A stretch of DNA of 64,000 nucleotides from a virus: the IMG/VR virus record IMGVR_UViG_3300045988_115849. One strand, 5' to 3'. The notes beneath the pieces were generated by a model. It saw only the letters and a program-made list of their open reading frames with translations. It was not told the DNA's origin and made no database searches. The translations under genes and the position numbers were made by a program. Positions 3,061-50,080 of the stretch are shown here, piece after piece (positions within the stretch are counted from its first letter, which is position 1; every line of letters starts with the position of its first letter).

Positions 3061-3249
3061 ATGATTTATGATCATGTAGTAAATAAAAATGGTGTGTATT
3101 ATGCAGCTGGTGATGAGGTTCCGGAGGATAATGTTTCCACGGAACCTTCTGTAGAAGAATCTGTAAAAGAACAGGAAGTTCCTGTAAAAAGTGAAGAATC
3201 TACAGAAGAACCAGAAAAACCAAAAAGAGGAAGATCGCCGAAGAAATAA
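3061..3249 (+). CDS. Small acidic protein, unknown function
   Basis: 62 aa, SD TAGGAG, Glu/Pro/Ser-rich tail ending in a basic KPKRGRSPKK. Confidence 0.5.
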   Translation: MIYDHVVNKNGVYYAAGDEVPEDNVSTEPSVEESVKEQEVPVKSEESTEEPEKPKRGRSPKK

Positions 3250-3264
3250 AATGAGGTAAAAGAA

Positions 3265-3609
3265 ATGACAGAGGAAATATTGAATGAATTAATTGAATAT
3301 GCCGGAGATGATTATGAAGCAAATCAACAGTCATTTCTAAACTCATTGATTGAAGATGCAATAGAAGAAGTATGCTGTGCAATGTATCCCGGTGGATATG
3401 CTTCTGATAAAGAGTTTGAAAAACAGAAACAATCAGCTGTGAAACGATACAAAGGAAAAATAAAAAGGATAGCACAGTATCATTATGATAAACAAGGAAA
3501 AGAAGGCGTAGTCAGTTATTCAGAAAGCAGTACATCAGCTTCTTATGAAAATTCTGGAACACCTTCTAGTTATTTGAGAGGTATTATACCTGAATCAAAA
3601 ATTATCTAA
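3265..3609 (+). CDS. Head-tail connector protein (gp6-like)
   Basis: 114 aa. N-terminal ..LIEYAGDDYE..FLNSLIEDAIEEV.. resembles phage gp6-like head-tail connector proteins. Position is after the capsid gene. Confidence 0.55.
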   Translation: MTEEILNELIEYAGDDYEANQQSFLNSLIEDAIEEVCCAMYPGGYASDKEFEKQKQSAVKRYKGKIKRIAQYHYDKQGKEGVVSYSESSTSASYENSGTPSSYLRGIIPESKII

Positions 3610-32574: not shown

Positions 32575-33183
32575 ATGAAAAATGATAAAAATTTTGTGAA
32601 CCTGAAAGGCACATTAGAAAAAGTGGATTATAGCCACCAATCAGGCGGAAGGATGTACTACAAAACGTACATTGATACGAGAAGAAAAAGCGGAACTGTT
32701 GACAGAGTTCCAGTTATTGTTTCAGAAGACCGTATGAACAATGCGGTAAGACAGGGAGCATACGTTGAAATTACCGGTGTATTTGCTTCAAGAAACAGAC
32801 CAGATGAAAATTCAGAAAAAAAACATTTGGATTTATTTGTAAATGCCAATGTTGTTGAAGAGGTAGAAGAGACAGAAGATTTAAACAAACTAGTTGTTGA
32901 AGGAACAGTTTGTAAGCCAACAGTAGGAAGGGTAACACCAGCAGGAAGAAAAGTTGCAGATATGTTTATCGCAGTAAACAGAAATAAGAGTTCTTATTAT
33001 TTCCCTTGCATCTTATGGGGAGATACTGCTGAGATTGCAAAAAAACTTGAAGTTGGAGAAAAAGTAAAACTTATCGGCAGGATTCAGAGTAGAAAGTATA
33101 CAAAAAAGATTTCTAAGAATGAATCAATTGAAAAAGAAGCTTACGAAATTTCTAGCAGTTGCTTAGAGGTAGTCAAATGTTGA
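32575..33183 (+). CDS. Putative ssDNA-binding protein with two OB-fold-like halves
   Basis: 202 aa. Two similar halves, each ending in ..V.(I/L).G....R... (YVEITGVFASRNR; KVKLIGRIQSRKY). Function inferred, not verified. Confidence 0.45.
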   Translation: MKNDKNFVNLKGTLEKVDYSHQSGGRMYYKTYIDTRRKSGTVDRVPVIVSEDRMNNAVRQGAYVEITGVFASRNRPDENSEKKHLDLFVNANVVEEVEETEDLNKLVVEGTVCKPTVGRVTPAGRKVADMFIAVNRNKSSYYFPCILWGDTAEIAKKLEVGEKVKLIGRIQSRKYTKKISKNESIEKEAYEISSSCLEVVKC

Positions 33184-33656
33184 AACGAAGAGATGTTGAA
33201 CAAAAAATGATAGACCTTAATTTCAATACAAGACTACTTGGATTTAAGTATTCAGTAGAAACAGTATTGATTTTTGACAAAAAAGGTACAGCTATTCCAA
33301 TGATGAAAGTTTATAAAGAGATCGCTGAAAAATACAACACAGATGCAAGAAGTGTTGAACGTGCAATGAGATTTTCTTATGACGATGTTATCAAACGATC
33401 AACGAACTGTGAGGAAGTGGAAAGATACATAGGTTATGACTCTATAGGAAGCGCAGCAACGCTTTCAAGAATGTATTACCGTTTGAAAGATGATCTTGAA
33501 AATAGGCAGAAGGACAAGCGGAAAGAATTGGAAAGTCTGGTAAGAAATGTTGTAAGAGAAGAGTTAAGAATACAATTAGGAGGTCAAAATGAAGCAGGTA
33601 GAATTGAAGACAATGTCGTTGGAAAACTTCAAGTGTTTTCAGGACAAAGAAATTAA
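33177..33656 (+). CDS. Spo0A C-terminal (DNA-binding) domain-like protein without a receiver domain
   Basis: ..LLGFKYSVETVLIF..MMKVYKEIAEKYNTDARSVERAMRFSY.. parallels the Spo0A_C signature (..[35 protein letters not shown]..). The start is uncertain (ATG 33177 or TTG 33159). Confidence 0.7.
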   Translation: MLKRRDVEQKMIDLNFNTRLLGFKYSVETVLIFDKKGTAIPMMKVYKEIAEKYNTDARSVERAMRFSYDDVIKRSTNCEEVERYIGYDSIGSAATLSRMYYRLKDDLENRQKDKRKELESLVRNVVREELRIQLGGQNEAGRIEDNVVGKLQVFSGQRN

Positions 33657-35619
33657 GTTTGACGGAGATACAAAAGTCTCTGGAAGAAATCAGGAAGGCA
33701 AGACCACAATCATGGATGCCTACTTTGACGTACTGACAGGAAAACTTTCAGACGGAACGATGCCGGACGGAGTTAGAAGAAAAGAGGACGGCAAAGAAGT
33801 AGATAAGGTAGACGTTATCCGACAGATAAGAGTTTCTATCAACGGTAAAGAATACGATCTGAAAAAGATCACAAAGCAGAAGTGGAAAAGACCACGAGGA
33901 ACGAAAGAAGAAGTCTTCACAGGCAATGAAACAACTTATGAGATTGACGAAGTACCTAAGAAGAAGAAAGAGTTTGATGAGTTTATCTCAGATAACTTTG
34001 ATCCTGAGACGTTACTTGTTTGTAGTAATCCAATTGTATTTTTAAATGCCTTGAGGAAGAATACGACAAATGCGAGAAAGATTCTTGAAAAAATGTCAGG
34101 TTTCGATCTAAGACAGTTCATCGAAGAAAATCCGCAGTATGAAAATGTATACAAAATGATTGAGAATCATACAGCGGATGAAATCTTGAAGAAGCTTAGA
34201 AAAGAGCTAAACATGAACGAAAAGAAGATTGATGAACAGAACACAAAGATTTCGTATGAAAGAAATCGCGAGGTTGATTTTGGAAACAAAACAGAGATCG
34301 AAAAGAAATTAAACGAAGCAAGAAGCAAACTTAATAAAGTAGAAGAACAGGAAGAAACACTTGCAAACTCATTTGCAGCATATGAAACAACATCGGATGA
34401 ATTGACTAAACTAAAACGTCAGAAAGATGAAATCTACAATGAAGCAAACAAAGAACTGACGGAAAAACGTTTTAAATTACGGTTTGATGAAGATAAATTG
34501 GAATGTAATCTTCAACATAAACGTGGTCTTTTAGAACAGGATGAATTTAAACTTTCTAACGATAAAAAGAAGATAAAACAGTGGGAAGAATATCTGAACA
34601 ATGCTAGAGAGAACTATAAAAAAACATTCAAAGAAGAATATCAAGATAATCAATCATCAGAAATTGAAAAAGAGGTATTCGATGATGATACAGCAATCTG
34701 CCCAACGTGCGGTCAGCGGCTTCCAGAAGATAAGATTGATCAGTTAAAAGCAGAATTTGAGGAAAATAAAAAAATAAGACTCTTGAAAGAGAAAGAAAAA
34801 GAAGATCTGTGGAAATCTGGAAAAGCCAAAAAGCTTAAAAGAATTACGGAAGATGGTAATATGTGCAAACAAAAAGTTGATTATTTTAAAGAAGATAAGA
34901 AGCTGATTGAAGAAGAAATTTCAAAAAATAAGCAAGCAATTTGTGATTACGAAAAAGAAATTGAGTCAATCAATGCAAAATTAGCTGATCTGCCAGAAGA
35001 AGTTGACATGTCCTCAAACGAAGAATACATCAAAGTTTTAAAAAGCATTGAAAATCTTGAAAATAAGATTGGATTGCTGAACAGCGGCAAAGAAAAAAGA
35101 AAACAGCTTTCAGAAGAAAAACAAAAATATTTTTCTGAAATTGCGAAACTTGAAGCTGAGTTACATAGTCTGGAAAATGCGAAAAAAGATAAAGAAAAGA
35201 GAATTGACAGTCTGGAAGAAGATTTAAAGGCGTTTTCACAGATTGGAGCTGATCTTGAAAGACAGATTGATGAATTATTAGAGTTTTCACTCAGGAAGAA
35301 TGAGTGTATCGCAGGAAAAATCAATCCATACTTCAAGCATCTTAATTTCCAGTTCTTAGATTATACCATTGAAGGAAATCCAGTGGAAACGTGTAAGATC
35401 ATGTGTCATGGGATTAATTATATGGACGGGCTGAATCATGGAGACAAGATTCTATGTGAAGCTGATATGGTAAGCGGATTCCAGAAGATGAACGATGTGA
35501 GACTGCCAATCTTTATTGATGATGCAGAAAGCCTTGATTCTGACAGGATTCCAGAGTTTGAACAGCAATTAATATTACTGATCAGAAGTGACAACGATTT
35601 AGAGGTGTCAAAACTATGA
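33589..35619 (+). CDS. SMC/Rad50/SbcC-like ATPase with a long coiled coil and a CxxC hook
   Basis: 676 aa, SD GGAGG. Walker A GRNQEGKTT, long Lys/Glu coiled coil, central CPTCGQRLP, C-terminal Walker B-like PIFIDDAESLD. Confidence 0.8.
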   Translation: MKQVELKTMSLENFKCFQDKEIKFDGDTKVSGRNQEGKTTIMDAYFDVLTGKLSDGTMPDGVRRKEDGKEVDKVDVIRQIRVSINGKEYDLKKITKQKWKRPRGTKEEVFTGNETTYEIDEVPKKKKEFDEFISDNFDPETLLVCSNPIVFLNALRKNTTNARKILEKMSGFDLRQFIEENPQYENVYKMIENHTADEILKKLRKELNMNEKKIDEQNTKISYERNREVDFGNKTEIEKKLNEARSKLNKVEEQEETLANSFAAYETTSDELTKLKRQKDEIYNEANKELTEKRFKLRFDEDKLECNLQHKRGLLEQDEFKLSNDKKKIKQWEEYLNNARENYKKTFKEEYQDNQSSEIEKEVFDDDTAICPTCGQRLPEDKIDQLKAEFEENKKIRLLKEKEKEDLWKSGKAKKLKRITEDGNMCKQKVDYFKEDKKLIEEEISKNKQAICDYEKEIESINAKLADLPEEVDMSSNEEYIKVLKSIENLENKIGLLNSGKEKRKQLSEEKQKYFSEIAKLEAELHSLENAKKDKEKRIDSLEEDLKAFSQIGADLERQIDELLEFSLRKNECIAGKINPYFKHLNFQFLDYTIEGNPVETCKIMCHGINYMDGLNHGDKILCEADMVSGFQKMNDVRLPIFIDDAESLDSDRIPEFEQQLILLIRSDNDLEVSKL

Positions 35620-35639
35620 TGTGATAATTGACTTCCTAA

Positions 35640-36125
35640 GCAAAGCAAAGGAAAAGTTAAGATGCGAAGAGAAAAGGAATAGCACGGAATTGTCAGGCAC
35701 CGAATTGGAATGGCGAGGAGTAGAAAAGTTTTGTTATGCAATGTGAAGGAAAAGCAATGATGAGTTTAGAGAAGCTTTGGAATAGCATGGTTCTGAACTG
35801 AATAGATACGACATGGAATAGAAATGTTTTGTTACGGAGCTGAATAGTGAAGGAATTGCATAGAGACGCATGGATTTGAGAAGAAAAGGCAAAGTAAAGA
35901 AATGACTGGATAATTATTTAGCTGAAATGTAGTGGCGTGGAGAGGAATAGAGTTGACATGATAAGGAATGGTAAAGAATGGAGATGTAAAGAATGGAGAT
36001 ATTGCGAAAAGGAAGGGAATAGAATTGATGCAATGTGCTTCGTTTGGCAAAGGACAAGCTCAGCGATCAGCAGAGTTGTGATGGAATAGCTACGTTCAGA
36101 GTGTTTAGAACATAAGAGCATAGCA
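35640..36125 (+). repeat. GA-rich, C-poor ORF-free region A with GAATAG iterons
   Basis: GGAATAG starts at 35676, 35779, 35815, 35944, 36016 and 36083. TGAATAG starts at 35799 and 35841. Perfect 15-nt tandem GTAAAGAATGGAGAT x2 at 35971-36000. Only one C in 35941-36000. Stops in all three + frames. Confidence 0.8.
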
Positions 36126-36161
36126 CCGAAAATGAAAACGTATTAAAAAGGAGAAAAAATA

Positions 36162-36782
36162 ATGAAAGAAATGAAAGTAAGATTAACATTTATTGAGGAA
36201 ATTTTAGGAACAGCAAGTAATGATAAGGAATTACATGCAGAGTACATTGCAAGCAAGGCACCTGATGCGATCAGTAAAAAAGAAGAGATTGAAGCAATTG
36301 GTGTTGAAGGCGTTATAGAAAAAGGAAAGACTGTATTTCCTAAAGATGAAAATGATAATCCATTTATCTATGATTACCAGATCAAAGGATTTTTCAAGAA
36401 CGCAGCAAAAGCATTCAACTATGTCAAGAAACTTGCAGCATACAAAACAAAGATTGACAATCTGATCTTCGTCAATGAACGAAAGATTCTGTTACAGATT
36501 CCAGAAGGAAAAGAAATGGGAAACTGCCAGAGACCATTAAGAGCGCAGACACCACAAGGAGAAAGAGTTGCACTTGCAAATAGTGATAGCTGTCCAGAAG
36601 GTACAGTTATTGAATTTACAGTAATGTCAATGGTTGATGATCTCATGGACAACGTGGAAATGTGGCTTGATTACGGAAAATTAAACGGAATTGGTCAGTG
36701 GCACAATAGCGGAAAAGGTCGCTTTGTGTGGGAGAAGCTTGACAAAAAAGGAAAAGTGATTGGCGGTAACAAGGAAGATTAA
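36162..36782 (+). CDS. Hypothetical protein upstream of RecT
   Basis: 206 aa, strong SD AAAGGAG. Motifs IKGFFKNAAKA and C-terminal GIGQWHNSGKGRFVWE. No family recognised with confidence. Confidence 0.6.
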   Translation: MKEMKVRLTFIEEILGTASNDKELHAEYIASKAPDAISKKEEIEAIGVEGVIEKGKTVFPKDENDNPFIYDYQIKGFFKNAAKAFNYVKKLAAYKTKIDNLIFVNERKILLQIPEGKEMGNCQRPLRAQTPQGERVALANSDSCPEGTVIEFTVMSMVDDLMDNVEMWLDYGKLNGIGQWHNSGKGRFVWEKLDKKGKVIGGNKED

Positions 36783-36842
36783 TTGATGTATTGAAAATTA
36801 GTTGAAGTAACAATTAAATTTTACATAGAAAGGTTGGTAAAA

Positions 36843-37763
36843 ATGGCAACAAAAACAGAGATTCAGGAACAGGGAAAAACTCAGGCAGCGGCAGTTATTA
36901 ACAATGCGTTCATTGATGGGTTAACAACACAACTTAATGAAAAGTGTAAATATGGAATGTCTTTTCCAAAAGACTACAATTTAGCAAATGCACTGACAGG
37001 TGCATATCTGGTATTAAAAGAAACTACAGACAGAAATAATAAGCCAATTTTAGAATCTTGCACACAGGCAAGTGTCGCAAACTCCTTAATGGATATGGCA
37101 ACTCTTGGTTTATCTGTACAGAAGAAACAGGGATACTTTATTGCTTATGGTAAGAAATGTTTATTCCAGAGATCATATTTTGGAAACGTGACAATTGCAA
37201 GAAGATATGGACTAGAAAAAATCAGTTCAGAAGTCATTTACGAAGGAGATCATTTCGAGTACGCAATTGTAGATGGAGAAAAAGTTCTCAAAGAACATAC
37301 TCAGGACTTTAACAACATTAACAACGACAAGATTGTTGGTGCTTACGCAGTTCTTACGATGAATGACGGACAAAAAATCTTAGAAGTAATGAACATTAAC
37401 CAGATTAAGCAGGCTTGGAAACAGGGATATGGATATCAAGAAGGTAAAGGAGTTCATGCTAAGTTTACAGACCAGATGGCCAAGAAAACAGTCATGAATC
37501 GTGCATTAAAGCAGATCATCAATACTCATGGAGATGCATTCGTTCAGGAAGCTGATGAAAGAACAGAGAAAATTCCAGAAGAGTCAGTAATTGAAGCTGA
37601 CGTAAGAGAAGATGTAGAGACAGGTTCTAATCAGGAAGAGTTTATTGTTGATGATGTTCAGGATACAGAAGAAGCTGTAGAAGAAGTCAAAAGTGCAGAT
37701 GATATTGCAGAAGAAGTAACAGAAGCTGATCTGCCGGACTTTATGGTTCAGGAAGATGAATAA
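36843..37763 (+). CDS. recT: RecT-family single-strand annealing recombinase
   Basis: ATG at 36843. ..SVANSLMDMATLGLSVQKKQGYFIAYGKKCLFQRSYFG.. and ..DQMAKKTVMNRALK.. match the RecT family pattern. Acidic C-terminal tail. Confidence 0.85.
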   Translation: MATKTEIQEQGKTQAAAVINNAFIDGLTTQLNEKCKYGMSFPKDYNLANALTGAYLVLKETTDRNNKPILESCTQASVANSLMDMATLGLSVQKKQGYFIAYGKKCLFQRSYFGNVTIARRYGLEKISSEVIYEGDHFEYAIVDGEKVLKEHTQDFNNINNDKIVGAYAVLTMNDGQKILEVMNINQIKQAWKQGYGYQEGKGVHAKFTDQMAKKTVMNRALKQIINTHGDAFVQEADERTEKIPEESVIEADVREDVETGSNQEEFIVDDVQDTEEAVEEVKSADDIAEEVTEADLPDFMVQEDE

Positions 37764-37837
37764 AATATTATTCTTCTGGTAGCAGTAACTTTAACTGATA
37801 GAATAAAAGCATTTGCAGATAAGAGAGTGGTGAGAAC

Positions 37838-38161
37838 ATGAAAATTTCAGAACTGCAATTAAATTGCAAATATGATGACAGCGTTATGGAAGAATTTAAA
37901 ACTTGTCACCCAAAGCAGATTATGAGCGAAGATATTCCAATTCCAATTTGGAAAATTATATATCGTTATAAAACTACTCGTGGTAACGACAGAACAGCAA
38001 CAAAATATATAATTTTAGAGGAATGTTCGTGGGATATGATTGACGATGAATTTCAACATTATATTGCTGAGTTCAATGAGAAACATCCAGAAAGAAAGCT
38101 ATCAAACGTAGAAATCCTTGATAGTGTATTTCTTGGAAAAGTATATATTCCACTTGAATAA
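37838..38161 (+). CDS. Hypothetical protein
   Basis: 107 aa, SD GGTGAG, co-directional and tightly packed. Confidence 0.5.
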   Translation: MKISELQLNCKYDDSVMEEFKTCHPKQIMSEDIPIPIWKIIYRYKTTRGNDRTATKYIILEECSWDMIDDEFQHYIAEFNEKHPERKLSNVEILDSVFLGKVYIPLE

Positions 38162-38358
38162 ATTTAAAAAATCAATTGTGATCAATTCCCTGTAAACAGG
38201 GTTGTATAGTGAGATGTCATGCATTACCCATGAAACATAGCGACAATGATGGCTAAAACGTAAAATCTTACGCCATGACCTAAGATAATTGGTTTCTAAG
38301 TATAAGATAAATACCTTTAACGGATGGGTAAAATCCAAAAGTTAAAGGAAGATTACAA
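38162..38358 (+). promoter_or_regulatory. 197-nt structured ORF-free leader with an SD-sequestering helix
   Basis: Hairpins CCCTG/CAGGG (38188-38201) and ATGGC..GCCAT enclosing CGTAA/TTACG (38249-38275). The helix CCTTTAAC (38314-38321) / GTTAAAGG (38341-38348) takes in the SD AAAGGAAG of the TTG start at 38359. Confidence 0.45.
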
Positions 38359-39639
38359 TTGAATCCAATCTATGATGGATATATTAATTTTTTAAGAGAA
38401 ATGTCTGGTGAAAAATTACCAGATTTAAAAGAAGGATATTTTTGGCTTAACAGACAGATTATTAAAGGATTTGACAAGCAAGGAAATATACATAAATTTT
38501 ACAAAGTTGTTGTTTCTAATGATTTAGAAGCTGTTGAAATTAAAAAACTAAAAACATATGAAAACGTACAGGATATAGATTTAATCAGTTGGAAAGAACT
38601 AATCGACTTAAATAAAGAACATTTAATTCAAATTGAATCTGAGTTATTGAATCTAATCAAAGAAAAGATGCAGAAATACGAGAACTATACTTCGATTATT
38701 CCTGTGTCAATGGGAAAAGATTCTATGGTTACATGTCATCTTGTGAGAAGTTTATATCCTGATACAAAAGCAATATTTAACAATACATCCTTAGATTGTG
38801 CAGACACATATCAAATGGTAAAAGAGTTTACGAATTGTGAAATCATGAATCCAGATAAAGGATTCTATCAATATGTAGCATCTAATCATATGATTCCAAC
38901 TAGATTTTCAAGATTCTGTTGCAGGATTTTCAAAACAGGCGTAATGATATCACAACTTGACCATAATCATCCGTATTTATTGTGGATGGGAATGAGAAAT
39001 GAAGAATCAAATACAAGAAGCTCTTATGAAGATGAATGGGTTAACAAATCTGAATGGGGTAAGACTTGTTGGAAAGGAATTTTACCTATTAGAAAATGGA
39101 CAGAGTTTGATGTCTGGTTGTATACGATATGGAAAGACATTACTGTTAATCCTAAATACAAGAAGGGCTATGCAAGAGTTGGCTGCCATTGTGCTTGTCC
39201 ATTTTATACAAAATCTACATGGATTCTTGATAAATACTGGTATCCAAAATCGTACAAAAGATGGAGAGAGATTCTTAGAGAAGATTTCATAAGCAATAAG
39301 AAATGGATTATTATGAATTGCACATTGGATGAATATTTAACGCAAGCTTGGAACGGTGGAACATTTAGGAATGAGCCAACAGAAGAAGTTATAAATGAGT
39401 TTGCTGAATATTTTGGTATTGATCAGAATGTGGCAATTAAATATTTTAACAAAGCATGTGATTGCTGCGGTAAAAGAATTAAACACAAAGAAGTTTTGAG
39501 TATGAATCTCAAATTACATGGTAGAAACATTGATAAATTCTATTGTAAGAAATGTCTTATGAAAGAATATAGTTGGGATTCTTGTGATTGGGACAAACAA
39601 ATTACAATGTTTAAACAATCAGGATGTGAGCTATTTTGA
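38359..39639 (+). CDS. PAPS-reductase-like PP-loop enzyme with a Cys-rich C-terminal domain (IbrA / DUF3440-like)
   Basis: 426 aa. PP-loop-like IIPVSMGKDSMV. C-terminal cysteine clusters (..CDCCGKRIKHKE..FYCKKCLMKEY..). No ParB-like partner gene is adjacent. Confidence 0.7.
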   Translation: MNPIYDGYINFLREMSGEKLPDLKEGYFWLNRQIIKGFDKQGNIHKFYKVVVSNDLEAVEIKKLKTYENVQDIDLISWKELIDLNKEHLIQIESELLNLIKEKMQKYENYTSIIPVSMGKDSMVTCHLVRSLYPDTKAIFNNTSLDCADTYQMVKEFTNCEIMNPDKGFYQYVASNHMIPTRFSRFCCRIFKTGVMISQLDHNHPYLLWMGMRNEESNTRSSYEDEWVNKSEWGKTCWKGILPIRKWTEFDVWLYTIWKDITVNPKYKKGYARVGCHCACPFYTKSTWILDKYWYPKSYKRWREILREDFISNKKWIIMNCTLDEYLTQAWNGGTFRNEPTEEVINEFAEYFGIDQNVAIKYFNKACDCCGKRIKHKEVLSMNLKLHGRNIDKFYCKKCLMKEYSWDSCDWDKQITMFKQSGCELF

Positions 39640-39655
39640 AAGGAGAATAACAAAC

Positions 39656-40321
39656 ATGGTAATTAATGGTAAAAAATTTAAAGAAGTAAATATTACAAAA
39701 GATGGAGAGCTGATCGTATCTATCGCAGATGGAGAACATGGAATCGTGCATAAAGATGATTACACAGTACAGCTTGTTGTAGAAGAAATTGGCATGACGT
39801 TTTCAGAAGCATTTAAAGCAATGAAAGCAGGAGCAAAAGTCAAACTTCCATCTTGGGGCGGATATTGGTACTGGGATACAGAAAAAGAAACTATCATGAT
39901 GCAGTGCAGACCGAAAGATACCGATAAGGGGCAAGGAGACTTATTAGACGTTAGGGAGACACAGAGAGTCGAATATACACTTTCTAACATTTTGTCTGAT
40001 GAATGGCTAATCGCAGATGAAACGAATTGTCCAGTTTTAGGCGGAGAAGCCACATTTGGATTTGGAGATGCTATCAAGTACGTGAAACGTGGACTTAAAG
40101 TTAAGAGAAAAGGATGGAACGGAAAGAATCAGTATATCCAGTTAGCAACAGGAATTTTATATAATACAGCAGACAAAACAATTGTTAATTGCGATCATGA
40201 AGCCATCGGAAATAAAGCAGTGGCATTTGCAGTGGCATTTGTGGGAACATCTGGTGTACAGATGGGGTGGTTAGCATCACAGGCTGATATGTTAGCAGAA
40301 GATTGGATGTTTGTAGATTAG
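39656..40321 (+). CDS. Tandem DUF2829 (Tad2-like) protein
   Basis: ATG at 39656 after SD AAAGGAGAA. Two halves: ..MTFSEAFKAMKAGAKVKLPSWGGYWYWD..LSDEWLIAD and ..FGFGDAIKYVKRGLKVKRKGWNGKNQYIQLA..MGWLASQADMLAEDWMFVD. The second carries the W-x-A-S-Q-x-D-x-L-A-E-D-W signature. Confidence 0.7.
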   Translation: MVINGKKFKEVNITKDGELIVSIADGEHGIVHKDDYTVQLVVEEIGMTFSEAFKAMKAGAKVKLPSWGGYWYWDTEKETIMMQCRPKDTDKGQGDLLDVRETQRVEYTLSNILSDEWLIADETNCPVLGGEATFGFGDAIKYVKRGLKVKRKGWNGKNQYIQLATGILYNTADKTIVNCDHEAIGNKAVAFAVAFVGTSGVQMGWLASQADMLAEDWMFVD

Positions 40322-40331
40322 GAGTTGATAT

Positions 40332-40628
40332 ATGAGTAAATATGTAAAGAAACCTGTTGTGGTAGAAGCTGTTAAATGGAATGGAAATAACATCGAAGAA
40401 GTAAAAGAATTTATGAAAGAACAACTTGATAAATTGCATTTTGAAAGCATGGATGCAAGTAATTTAGAAGAAGGAAAACTTTCAATGGTTGACTTTCTTG
40501 CGATTCAAACTCTTGAAGGTGTTATGACTGTATCAGACGGAGACTACATAATTAAGGGTGTTAATGGTGAGTTCTATCCATGTAAACCTGATATTTTCAA
40601 AAAAACATATGAACCATATAACGAATAA
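40332..40628 (+). CDS. Hypothetical protein
   Basis: 98 aa, SD TAGGAG. ..KKPVVVEAVKWNG..GDYIIKGVNGEFYPCKPDIFKKTYEPY, a pattern common in phage proteins of unknown function. Confidence 0.55.
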   Translation: MSKYVKKPVVVEAVKWNGNNIEEVKEFMKEQLDKLHFESMDASNLEEGKLSMVDFLAIQTLEGVMTVSDGDYIIKGVNGEFYPCKPDIFKKTYEPYNE

Positions 40629-40639
40629 AGGAGAAGAAA

Positions 40640-40903
40640 ATGGAAAGCAGAGAATTTTTAGCGGTATGCAAAGCCAAGATTGCAGATTATGTGAATGATC
40701 ATATTGATAAGACAGATCAGAAACATCTTACGATCAACGATGTATACGTTGTCTTGTATGCTAAGACATTACAGAATCATAAAGCGTTACTGAGTACAAC
40801 GTTATTAGACGGAATGTACTATGAAATGACATTCAACGGAGACAAGAGAGAGTTGTACATGGATGCTTACAAAAAGTGGGAAAACATCAAATTTGATATG
40901 TAG
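40640..40903 (+). CDS. Hypothetical protein
   Basis: 87 aa, SD AAAGGAGAAG. Confidence 0.5.
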   Translation: MESREFLAVCKAKIADYVNDHIDKTDQKHLTINDVYVVLYAKTLQNHKALLSTTLLDGMYYEMTFNGDKRELYMDAYKKWENIKFDM

Positions 40904-40912
40904 AGGTGGAAA

Positions 40913-41317
40913 ATGGTTGGTACTCTTGAAGAAATGAAAGACGATTTAGCAACAGTAACAGATTACACAAAAAACGGAGAGTGTTCGCAGTGCGGTAAGT
41001 GCTGCGCCAACCTTCTTCCGTTATCACTTGGAGAAGTTAACAGGATCAAAAGATATGTGAAAGAACACAATATCAAAGAAAATGTGCATAAACCACCAAT
41101 CGTAGGTAAATTTGTGGATATGACATGTCCATTTAGAGACGATGTCAGAAAGATTTGTACAATTTACGAAGTTAGACCGATGATCTGTAAAGATTTTAGA
41201 TGCGACAAGGCAGCAAAGGATATTCAGGCTTCTAAGAGATTGTATTATGCAAGAAGAAATCCAGTGGACTTAAGAAAGGAAATATTCAGAAATGTCAATG
41301 TGGCTAAAAGTAATTAA
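40913..41317 (+). CDS. YkgJ-type cysteine-cluster (CxxCxxCC) protein
   Basis: 134 aa. CSQCGKCCANLLPLS plus downstream Cys residues (..MTCPF..ICTIYEVRPMICKDFRC). Confidence 0.65.
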   Translation: MVGTLEEMKDDLATVTDYTKNGECSQCGKCCANLLPLSLGEVNRIKRYVKEHNIKENVHKPPIVGKFVDMTCPFRDDVRKICTIYEVRPMICKDFRCDKAAKDIQASKRLYYARRNPVDLRKEIFRNVNVAKSN

Positions 41318-42092
41318 CACAGGAAGTCAGTATGGTAATTGCTATGCATTAATGAGTGGAGATGGAGAAATCTTATTGCTTGACTGCGGATGTAAATTTA
41401 AAGACATTCTAAGGGGAATTAATTATAGGATAGCAGATGTGGCAGGGTGTTTATTGACTCATATCCACGGAGATCATGCAAAATCATATAAAAATCTTAC
41501 TAAGAATGGAATAGCAATATACAGCAATAATGAGACAGTAGAACATTTTGGAGCATATGATCCAATAGAATATTTTGATCTTGGAATTGGTGGAATGATA
41601 GGAAAAAAAGAAAGAAAGCCGTTTGAGTGTGGAAGTTTCAATGTGATTCCGTTCTATCTGCCACACACAACAAAAGACAAAGATACTGGGGAAATCATAC
41701 CGTGTCCAAACTTTGGATATTTTATACAACACAAGGACATGGGAAGTCTAGTATACATGACGGATTTTGAATACCCTACACTATCTTTTAGATCGGCGAA
41801 AATCAATCATCTTCTATGTGAAGTTAATTACTGTGAGGAATTTGTTGATAAATCGGCAGCAAACTTTGAACATCGACTCAAAGGACATTTATCTTTTGAG
41901 ACATTCAAAGAAAAGGTTTTGAAACAGAATATGACAGATGCATTAAAAACAGTAACGATTTGTCACTTAAGTGATGCAGCAGCCGATGAACAAATGATTC
42001 TAAATCAAACAAAAGAGATTACAGGAAATGACATTGAAGTTAACATTGCTAAAAGATCATTATGTGTAAATCTAAATTACATACCGTTTTGA
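41292..42092 (+). CDS. Metallo-beta-lactamase-fold hydrolase (probable nuclease of the recombination module)
   Basis: 266 aa. ..LLLDCGCKF.. and the HxHxDH motif (LLTHIHGDHAKS). Confidence 0.75.
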   Translation: MSMWLKVINTGSQYGNCYALMSGDGEILLLDCGCKFKDILRGINYRIADVAGCLLTHIHGDHAKSYKNLTKNGIAIYSNNETVEHFGAYDPIEYFDLGIGGMIGKKERKPFECGSFNVIPFYLPHTTKDKDTGEIIPCPNFGYFIQHKDMGSLVYMTDFEYPTLSFRSAKINHLLCEVNYCEEFVDKSAANFEHRLKGHLSFETFKEKVLKQNMTDALKTVTICHLSDAAADEQMILNQTKEITGNDIEVNIAKRSLCVNLNYIPF

Positions 42093-42320
42093 TTAGTGTT
42101 GAAAAAGAAAAGATATGACATGAAACGGAATAGCGAGGAAAGGTTTTGCTTGGAAATGGCATGGCGTGGATAAGTGACGATATGAGCAGAGATGTGATGA
42201 CAAGGAAAGGTATAGAGCAGTTAGGGAATAGCAATGCGTAGATAAGTGTTATGATGCAATGGATATGAGAAGAATAGAGTTGAGATGGAATTGCATAGAG
42301 TAGAATAGTTCAGAGAAAGG
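42093..42320 (+). repeat. GA-rich, C-poor ORF-free region B, paralogous to region A
   Basis: GGAATAG starts at 42127 and 42225. AGAATAG starts at 42271 and 42302. Shared blocks with region A: GAATAGAGTTGA(C/G)ATG, GGAATTGCATAGAG, GGCGTGGA. Confidence 0.75.
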
Positions 42321-42327
42321 AAATAAT

Positions 42328-42486
42328 ATGTTTTGGTTAGTTTGGTTAGGAATTGGATTGTATGGAATGATTCCTATAGTGATTTTTGTTTTAACACTTA
42401 AGATTTATATTAAAAATGTTGAGACAGAAAAAAGAATTAAAAAGATAATGAATGGAATCTGTATTTTATCTAATAAAAAGTGGTGA
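42328..42486 (+). CDS. Small TM protein (52 aa, below the ORF-track cutoff)
   Basis: ATG at 42328 after SD AGAAAGGAAA. MFWLVWLGIGLYGMIPIVIFVLTLKIYIKNVETEKRIKKIMNGICILSNKKW. Confidence 0.4.
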   Translation: MFWLVWLGIGLYGMIPIVIFVLTLKIYIKNVETEKRIKKIMNGICILSNKKW

Positions 42487-42556
42487 TGCATCACAGTATC
42501 ACAAAAGATTCGATGATGGATGATGGTAAAATATAGGTAGAAAGGACGAATGATAC

Positions 42557-49858: not shown

Positions 49859-50080
49859 ATGAAAATAGTTGATATCAACACATTAAAAGGTTCAGACAGG
49901 CACGGCAGTTGTGTAGAGTGTGAAAAAGATTTTACAGAAGATAAAGGAATGAAAAGAATCGTTTTCGGCACAGATCAGAAGCGTACAATCTTCTTGTGTG
50001 ACAAATGCTACCACGATTTTTTGCAAGAAATGATCAGGAGAGAATTAAAGGGAATGAGGGTTGAGATATGCAGAAAATAA
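49859..50080 (+). CDS. Small zinc-ribbon-like protein (paralogue of 51740..51967)
   Basis: 73 aa, SD AAAGGAG. ..KGSDRHGSCVECEKDFTEDKGMKRIVF..CDKCYHDFLQEM. Confidence 0.55.
   Translation: MKIVDINTLKGSDRHGSCVECEKDFTEDKGMKRIVFGTDQKRTIFLCDKCYHDFLQEMIRRELKGMRVEICRK

Follow-up and report, generated by a model that had tools for sequence, protein, structure and literature searches.

Cas7 proteins bind extended single-stranded RNA, and the class 1 clustered regularly interspaced short palindromic repeat (CRISPR) backbones built of Cas7, Csm3, Cmr4 or Csf2 are the described assemblies that most resemble the element reported here. Type IV-B Csf2 filaments form without any CRISPR array (PMC7937560), orphan viral cas genes serve as anti-CRISPRs that poison host Cascade (bioRxiv 10.1101/2023.06.24.545427), and RNA anti-CRISPRs exist (PMC10651486). 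The locus analysed here lies in a 64,000-nucleotide (nt) stretch of viral DNA, IMG/VR record IMGVR_UViG_3300045988_115849, referred to throughout as the window. An earlier note, made from the letters alone, had drawn attention to two GA-rich gaps in it, here called arrays A and B (Table 1). Both arrays carry a strict lattice of G at every fifth nucleotide, and the gene directly after A encodes a predicted Cas7-like repeat-associated mysterious protein (RAMP). We lean, though without strong conviction, towards the reading that A and B are copies of one spacer-less repeat array, partnered in cis with this RAMP, and that the RAMP would polymerise on the transcribed array to form a filament probably used in counter-defence.

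The order in these gaps lies in the spacing of G. The earlier note had described GAATAG copies at irregular intervals; they sit on a lattice, and the G autocorrelation of A and of B, each taken separately, reaches 2.1-2.2 times expectation at lags 5, 26, 31 and 36, with peaks at lags 5, 10/11, 15/16, 20/21, 26, 31 and 36. When 14 related gaps are pooled, distances between GC dinucleotides are enriched at these same values (z up to 14.5) and depleted at all others. It was after this dinucleotide spacing had been noted among relatives that dynamic-programming segmentation found the lattice itself, a G each 5 nt with one 6-nt step per ~31 nt. Array A scores 66.3, whereas its shuffles average 6.8, and B, scored over 42093-42327, reaches 35.1, with a shuffle average of 6.5; the highest score in 1,000 shuffles was 15.5 for both. 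They are the sole strong G lattices in the window, and a scan of the opposite strand found none. A weak lattice elsewhere (17 of 18 points, score 9.1) falls within a 73-amino-acid (aa) open reading frame (ORF) and was judged a chance occurrence.

Each row of the lattice is 26, 31 or 36 nt long and is laid out as A-W-G-G-(A/C)-A-W-N-G-C, followed by (NNNGN)k and then NNNGCA. The GG doublet in the row header amounts to a one-base register slip, giving a mean period of 5.17 nt. GAATAG is thus the row header, (A)GG-AATAG-C, of the present phage lineage. The coordinates of the gaps and the counts of eight and four copies, all on the plus strand, had been given correctly, save that array B does not end at 42327: its lattice continues for ~38 nt more. 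Together A and B hold 12 of the 33 GAATAG copies in the window, whereas dinucleotide-preserving shuffles of the two regions average 0.85 copies and reach 5 at most; for GGAAT(A/T/G)G, 13 copies are seen and 0.5 expected. GGA is indeed very frequent, as had been noted, but mostly as a by-product of the GGAAT header. The lone C and the perfect tandem duplication described in A are also present in the sequence, and because the duplicated unit is 15 nt, three pentamers, it preserves the lattice. So are the blocks that A and B share, among them GGAATTGCATAGAG, GAATAGAGTTGA(C/G)ATG and GGCGTGGA. The C-poor, purine-rich composition holds as well (C 9% in A and 6% in B; purines 66-68%; GC skew 0.56-0.65).

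Relatives were fetched from IMG/VR through the 206-aa protein encoded directly after A, giving 80 loci. Most have a purine-rich, ORF-free gap beside the RAMP gene, and in nearly all of the 80 that gap has a strong lattice. Across 21 diverse arrays the lattice points are G at 90-100% compared with 15-26% off the lattice, with row lengths again peaking at 26, 31 and 36 nt; lattice positions in diverse arrays are G in 94% and C in 1%. The mean period is 5.171 +/- 0.028 nt over 46 protein clusters, array GC content ranges from 40 to 65%, and arrays run from ~170 nt to >1.3 kb in the clusters surveyed. The header is less constant: in relatives GGC is about as frequent as GGA and the TAG is not conserved. 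Some relatives (Table 1) have arrays of 1.3-1.7 kb, or 260-330 pentamers, which greatly exceed A and B in length.

Indels of 5, 15 and 36 nt, each a quantum of the lattice, separate the arrays of near-identical phages. Variation is rare at the lattice G, in 3 of 55 columns, whereas off the lattice it affects 72 of 240 columns, and 14 of 36 where the base is G (Fisher p = 5e-5); the lattice G columns are under purifying selection. These observations bear on the suggestion, made in the earlier note, that the gaps are decayed gene remnants, and on the related idea of a functionless, expanded microsatellite. Unit-sized indels between close relatives are what slippage-prone repeats produce, but the lattice is shared by arrays of dissimilar sequence and GC content, its G is selected, and its linkage to the RAMP gene is constant. 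Nor is a frame hidden in either array. As had been claimed, both are non-coding, with TAA, TAG and TGA all present in every plus-strand frame, so no single stop-codon reassignment, whether of TAG, TGA or TAA, opens one. Conservation of the lattice in arrays of unrelated sequence, drawn from 46-54 protein clusters, together with selection on its G, rules out a decaying gene or neutral microsatellite, to which we give next to no chance, and bears out the broader view that A and B are related, functional and packed with repeats rather than products of chance.

The earlier note missed both the 5-nt lattice and the nature of the adjacent 206-aa ORF, and the latter is the key to the element. When the RAMPs are clustered at 85% identity, an array adjoins the gene in 54 of 54 clusters: in 15 it lies solely upstream, in 29 solely downstream, and in 5 the gene is flanked by arrays on both sides; in the remaining 5 the arrays fall slightly below the purity cut-off. 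An independent IMG/VR search, using a lattice-plus-header DNA pattern alone, recovered a RAMP homologue in the fetched stretch for 93 of 108 true-array loci, and array and gene share a strand in 93 of 93, mostly 0-60 nt apart. At 6 of the 15 loci lacking a RAMP gene, the array lies at the edge of the fetched DNA. One locus found by pattern alone, L196, belongs to a Ruminococcus metagenome-assembled genome (MAG), and there too the RAMP gene abuts the array; this was the only real hit of a loose-lattice scan of genome contigs, which was otherwise swamped by chance matches in GC-rich genomes. A tblastn comparison with 17 window proteins found the RAMP alone to be common to all loci, with RecT, the SbcC-like ATPase and the single-strand-binding (SSB)-like protein common only with nearer relatives.

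Besides the RAMP gene, the arrays have as neighbours genes for SSB, RecT or Erf, Cro-like helix-turn-helix proteins, antirepressors and the like, with PD-(D/E)XK nucleases also nearby, and such surroundings are those of an early or recombination region. Apart from the RAMP, none of the neighbouring families recurs in more than 14 of the 54 clusters (SSB 14, RecT 8, Erf 7). A second conserved partner, whether Cas5-, Cas6- or Cas11-like, an initiator or RecT, was sought and none was general across the clusters.

The RAMP assignment comes chiefly from a predicted structure. The fold that marks the family is an RRM-like palm with a beta-hairpin thumb, superposable on Cas7, Csm3 or Cmr4; an AlphaFold2 model of the 206-aa protein, built with 29 homologues, agrees with it and includes a long hairpin at residues 120-144. 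The top 50 Foldseek matches in the PDB belong without exception to the Cas7 family, namely type VII Cas7, Csm3, Cmr4, type III-D and Csf2 (E values 3e-7 to 1e-5, probability 1.0, TM scores 0.45-0.56). A glycine-rich C-terminal loop, NGIGQWHNSGKGRF, is invariant or nearly so among the 29 homologues and aligns with NGIGGWLNKGYGRV of type VII Cas7 and SGIGGKRNSGYGKF of Csm4; the best matches of a sequence-profile search of the PDB, weak at E ~0.1, were type VII Cas7 and Csm4, aligned on this same loop. The top structural match in BFVD is 53% identical and annotated as a "Cas system-associated RAMP superfamily protein", and the sole PADLOC match, also weak, is Cas7_IIId (E = 0.0028). We accordingly treat the protein as a predicted Cas7-like RAMP.

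Several features favour RNA as the ligand. The arrays always lie on the sense strand of the RAMP gene and touch its ORF; in three relatives (L270, L224 and L324) a hairpin and U-tract follow the array and not the gene; and Cas7 proteins are RNA binders. Folding points the same way. Neither A nor B has more structure than its shuffles (z-scores 0.0 and -0.9), and just 7-14% of neighbouring 200-nt windows fold as poorly as the arrays do, even though the GC content of the arrays is above average. Avoidance of C and poor folding are expected of a ligand that is kept single-stranded with a G every five bases. Promoter and terminator scans found nothing notable within the two gaps. A terminator scan of the window found none between genes and arrays, although this simple scan also missed the hairpins that RNAfold places after the arrays of L270 and L224.

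We propose a model where the arrays are transcribed within the early operon to give a purine-rich, C-poor and hence unstructured RNA. That transcript would also yield the RAMP, which would polymerise along the array RNA as Cas7 does on CRISPR RNA, each pentamer taking one subunit and the lattice G setting the register, so that A would hold ~90 subunits and B ~55. The filament would most likely act in counter-defence: it could shield phage RNA, or serve as a decoy or dominant-negative mimic of the way in which the host assembles its class 1 CRISPR backbones. This function is probable rather than observed, and the presence of Tad2-like and BrxP-like genes between A and B was counted towards a counter-defence setting.

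A number of points weigh against this model. Searches of Pfam, NCBIfam and PHROGs with the 206-aa protein gave no match, and its assignment as a RAMP comes from a predicted structure (pLDDT 77.6, TM ~0.5) combined with weak sequence signals. In Rfam scans the arrays match no CRISPR repeat family, and this lack of likeness makes a plain repeat-mimic decoy unlikely. The coupling of gene and array is not absolute, since some arrays, including B, have no adjoining RAMP gene. Conversely, a 70%-identical RAMP on a bacterial contig of >1 Mb (L329-L331) has no array within 6 kb; that gene has recJ, secY and a gene for RNase T in its vicinity, with a hairpin and an unannotated 269-aa gene after it, and could represent a copy that has been domesticated or does not depend on an array. 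To our knowledge, every solved Cas7 backbone binds RNA blind to sequence and with a 6-nt repeat, so a G-specific 5-nt register would be unprecedented. Finally, two lattice periods of 5.17 nt add up to 10.34, one helical turn of B-DNA (~10.3 bp), which would fit a role at the level of DNA equally well. Given the sequence-blind 6-nt rule and the constancy of the period, readings in which the ligand is duplex DNA, single-stranded DNA or an R-loop are kept as rivals.

Were the arrays to act at the level of duplex DNA, a phage or host DNA-binding protein would bind along them as on a phased track, whether iteron-like, part of an origin or a nucleoprotein scaffold, contacting a G at each half turn of the helix, and the two copies would recall the oriL/oriR pairs of some phages. 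The constancy of the 10.34-bp double unit over 46 clusters suits such a track, as does the position of the arrays within replication and recombination modules that have SSB, RecT or Erf and PD-(D/E)XK nucleases near. In one relative (L030) a ~150-nt, near-pure A/T tract and short GCATTTGGTT repeats precede the array; this sequence might mark a promoter region or help to unwind the DNA, and it bears on the origin reading. A duplex site has no need, however, of the strand specificity of the lattice (G 94% vs C 1%) or of purine richness, and the orientation of the arrays follows that of the RAMP gene in 93 of 93 loci, with the arrays abutting its ORF. Consistent linkage to an initiator-like or DNA-binding gene was not seen across the 54 clusters. 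Each unit also carries little information, with ~1-2 conserved bases per 5 nt, unlike iterons of 17-22 bp, and A and B lack an AT-rich element. The iteron or origin reading put forward in the earlier note is therefore not favoured, as its units are degenerate, strand-specific and always abutting and co-oriented with one gene, and we consider it unlikely.

A related reading, to which we give a somewhat smaller chance, is that the purine transcript, possibly held by the RAMP much as crRNA is by Cascade, stays on its template, and that the displaced G strand or the hybrid primes replication or loads an annealing protein. Its attraction lies in the GC skew and purine-rich sense strand, which are typical of R-loop-prone sequence, in the recombination-gene setting, with the RAMP gene amid SSB, RecT and Erf genes in many clusters and recT directly after it in the window, and in the footprint of RecT: LiRecT covers exactly 5 bp per monomer and stacks a residue on every fifth nucleotide (PMC9772228). 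But these genes are found in a minority of clusters, which argues that there is no obligate annealing-protein partner, and nothing in a RecT filament corresponds to the one-base shift per ~31 nt.

A type III toxin-antitoxin system, with the RAMP as an endoribonuclease toxin and the array as a repeated RNA antitoxin that the RAMP would cut to units of ~31 nt and bind, is very improbable. The arrangement of a tandem non-coding array beside a gene of ~200 aa is reminiscent of such systems, the superfamily includes repeat-cleaving RNases (Cas6, Cas5d), and units of 26-36 nt are near the 34-37 nt of ToxI-type repeats. The units, though, are degenerate rather than near-identical, the arrays can exceed 1 kb and lie on either side of the gene, and no terminator separates the two. 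Structural matches are to Cas7 backbones and not to ToxN, AbiQ or Cas6, there is no PADLOC toxin match, and a close chromosomal homologue exists without an array, which a toxin would not tolerate. A ToxIN-like system was rejected on these grounds.

The earlier note had further proposed a decoy or sponge RNA for a GGA- or UAG-recognising RNA-binding protein, such as a CsrA-type regulator; a UAG-binding regulator of the host would be one resembling TRAP or HutP. In the present lineage the header, (A/T)GGAAUAG, does offer such sites, and a spacing of 5-6 nt recalls the triplet repeats bound by TRAP. In relatives, though, the header has GGC as often as GGA and loses the TAG; RNA folding found no hairpins presenting GGA in A or B; and the lattice shows no NAG triplet, A being found before its G in just 32% of cases. 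The arrays are linked to the RAMP gene and not to any CsrA- or TRAP-like regulator, and a CsrB/RsmZ-type sponge was likewise rejected, given the lack of excess structure and the GGC headers. We regard a sponge of this kind as scarcely plausible. The general idea of the earlier note, an array of protein sites that might act as RNA, has thus fared well, and most of its specific candidates have not.

How, then, does the element compare with the systems named at the outset? It shares with class 1 CRISPR backbones the predicted Cas7 RAMP fold, the glycine-rich loop, an adjacent repeated array and, as proposed here, helical polymerisation on extended single-stranded RNA in short regular segments. 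It differs in having no repeat-spacer layout and no cas1/2, Cas5, Cas6, Cas8, Cas10 or Cas11 genes, in its 5-nt period with a conserved G as opposed to a sequence-blind 6 nt, and in being borne by phages as contiguous, degenerate rows of ~31 nt that extend up to >1 kb. A CRISPR array proper has near-identical repeats of 23-50 nt with spacers between; the units here are contiguous, degenerate and spacer-less and match no Rfam CRISPR-DR family, and a CRISPR array was rejected as an identification. A cas operon was looked for beside the arrays of the window and of the 54 clusters, and a solitary Cas7-like RAMP was all that was found.

The likeness to type IV-B is that of a Cas7-like filament without a CRISPR array, proposed in that case to be an RNA sponge on mobile elements (PMC7937560). 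Type IV-B, however, has Csf1, Csf3 and Cas11 and binds heterogeneous RNA, whereas here there is a solitary RAMP with a dedicated array. Type IV-B also has a cysH-like accessory gene, and in the window a PAPS-reductase-family gene lies 1.6 kb downstream of the RAMP; this gene is missing in the closest relatives (L001-L009), so the link is probably coincidental. For the same lack of conservation, the PAPS-reductase and metallo-beta-lactamase (MBL)-hydrolase neighbours were set aside as analogues of type IV-B or type VII. Viral anti-CRISPRs derived from host systems, such as AcrIB3 (a Cas5 homologue), AcrIB4 (a Cas8b homologue) and the Racr RNAs, are likewise early, phage-borne Cas-derived proteins or repeat-like RNAs directed against host CRISPR. 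The orphan viral Cas proteins are close to those of the host, though, whereas the present RAMP is too diverged for Pfam, and Racr RNAs are solitary repeat units that mimic host repeats, whereas our arrays match no CRISPR repeat in Rfam.

Other precedents concern the register. The (G/U)AG repeats per 5-6 nt of TRAP, the assembly origin of tobacco mosaic virus with its G at each third base, and DnaA-trios all use one conserved base per protomer to set the register of an oligomer on a single strand; they differ from the present case in proteins, periods and biology, and no NAG triplet is conserved here. RecT and Redβ filaments, at 5 bp per monomer, have the same 5-nt periodicity, and recT lies directly downstream in the window, but RecT has no known sequence preference and is absent from most array loci. 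The architecture of the arrays has no known counterpart, and the element as a whole is best filed with RAMP-RNA systems. Identification by database had been suggested in the earlier note: neither a gathering-threshold Rfam scan of the window nor an E-value scan of 35500-42500 returned anything relevant, and blastn of A in distant mode against GenBank phages gave no match. Against GenBank phages there was no match beyond four unannotated faecal contigs, a search of the window for tRNA and tmRNA found none, and we found no published description of a lattice array element in the literature.

Table 1. Positions of the arrays, the RAMP gene and other features in the window and, where an L number is given, in the fetched relative of that number
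Feature	Position	Strand	Remarks
Array A	35620..36161	+	Entire non-coding gap, SbcC-like ATPase gene to RAMP gene
Array A, lattice core	35640-36099		~90 pentamer units in ~14 rows; G at 85 of 90 lattice points
Array A, row starts	35648, 35674, 35705, 35746, 35777, 35813, 35834, 35850, 35886, 35932, 35963, 36009, 36050, 36081
Array A, GAATAG	35677, 35780, 35800, 35816, 35842, 35945, 36017, 36084	+
Array A, segment with a single C	35941-36000
Array A, perfect 15-nt tandem duplication	35971-36000	+	GTAAAGAATGGAGAT twice
Cas7-like RAMP gene (predicted)	36162..36782	+	206 aa; start codon directly after array A
Array B	42086..42365	+	Second lattice array; ~55 pentamer units in ~8 rows; G at 53 of 55 lattice points; from MBL-hydrolase gene stop into first ~38 nt of 52-aa ORF
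Array B, row starts	42104, 42125, 42156, 42202, 42223, 42259, 42285, 42316
Array B, GAATAG	42128, 42226, 42272, 42303	+
52-aa hydrophobic ORF	42328-42486		Begins within array B lattice
Weak G lattice	49890-49983		Within 73-aa ORF
165-aa ORF	33159-33656		Overlaps end of SSB-like gene
SMC/Rad50-type ATPase gene	33589-35619		676 aa; directly upstream of array A
PAPS-reductase-family gene	38359-39639
CRISPR-DR49 sub-threshold match	38509-38565	-	Inside PAPS-reductase gene
Tad2-like domain gene	39584-40321
Long arrays	L315 1754-3102; L280 6495-7976; L270 9452-11115
A/T tract and repeats before array	L030 ~3100-3530
RAMP gene on bacterial contig	L329-L331 6001-6690		No array within 6 kb
IS605 OrfB/TnpB-type gene	L018 2161-3267		~700 nt upstream of RAMP gene

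The genes around the arrays deserve brief mention. The 52-aa hydrophobic ORF that starts inside the lattice of B either grew from array sequence or is no real gene, and in one relative (L036) the equivalent of B likewise follows the MBL gene. Between the two arrays, the product of the PAPS-reductase-family gene matches BrxP in PADLOC (E = 1e-34), and the Tad2-like protein carries an anti-Thoeris-type domain (E = 2e-24); both genes are likely defence-related. The minus-strand CRISPR-DR49 match inside the former (30 bits against a gathering threshold of 41, E = 0.072) is probably chance, if a curious one so close to a Cas7-like gene. Upstream of A, the 676-aa ATPase (AAA_23; PHROG 'SbcC-like') gives weak PADLOC matches to LmuB, JetC, PtuA and AriA, and no nuclease partner is evident beside its gene. 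The 165-aa ORF is 97-99% identical in close relatives; in NCBIfam it weakly matches the C-terminal, DNA-binding portion of Spo0A (E = 2.9e-5), at a score well short of the cut-off for that family. The TnpB-type gene of L018, with its Cas12f1-like TNB domain, is a second relative of RNA-guided nucleases at that locus. The hosts appear to be gut Clostridia, judging from the Ruminococcus MAG, the source name "Firmicutes bacterium" and the origin of samples in human faeces.

It is tempting to extend the model to these phages as a group. They may carry a two-part system descended from CRISPR backbones, a solitary Cas7-like protein together with its own spacer-less pentamer-lattice array, on which the protein reads a G at each fifth nucleotide and builds filaments hundreds of nucleotides long, and these could either disable RNA-guided immunity or hold an R-loop as a start site for replication or recombination. 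We offer this wider proposal only tentatively, and with clearly less confidence than the pairing of array and RAMP set out above. A start-site role would explain both the position of the element among SSB, RecT and Erf genes and its 10.3-nt double period.

The case illustrates that irregular-looking, GA-rich filler can conceal a strict periodic code, and a protein that assembles itself on (NNNGN)n could be useful as a programmable RNA scaffold. If the pairing is functional, it defines a large family of which we found no published description: the 206-aa protein has 5,362 homologues in the protein database, all unnamed and without Pfam domains, and homologues on ~600 IMG/VR contigs. If the model is true, viruses have appropriated a CRISPR backbone protein along with a new kind of cognate RNA, and Cas7-RNA recognition would extend from a sequence-blind 6-nt mode to a base-registered 5-nt one. 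The element would then offer a testable example of what Cas7 systems lacking an array, type IV-B among them, might do, and a new way of countering CRISPR or of priming replication could come to light.

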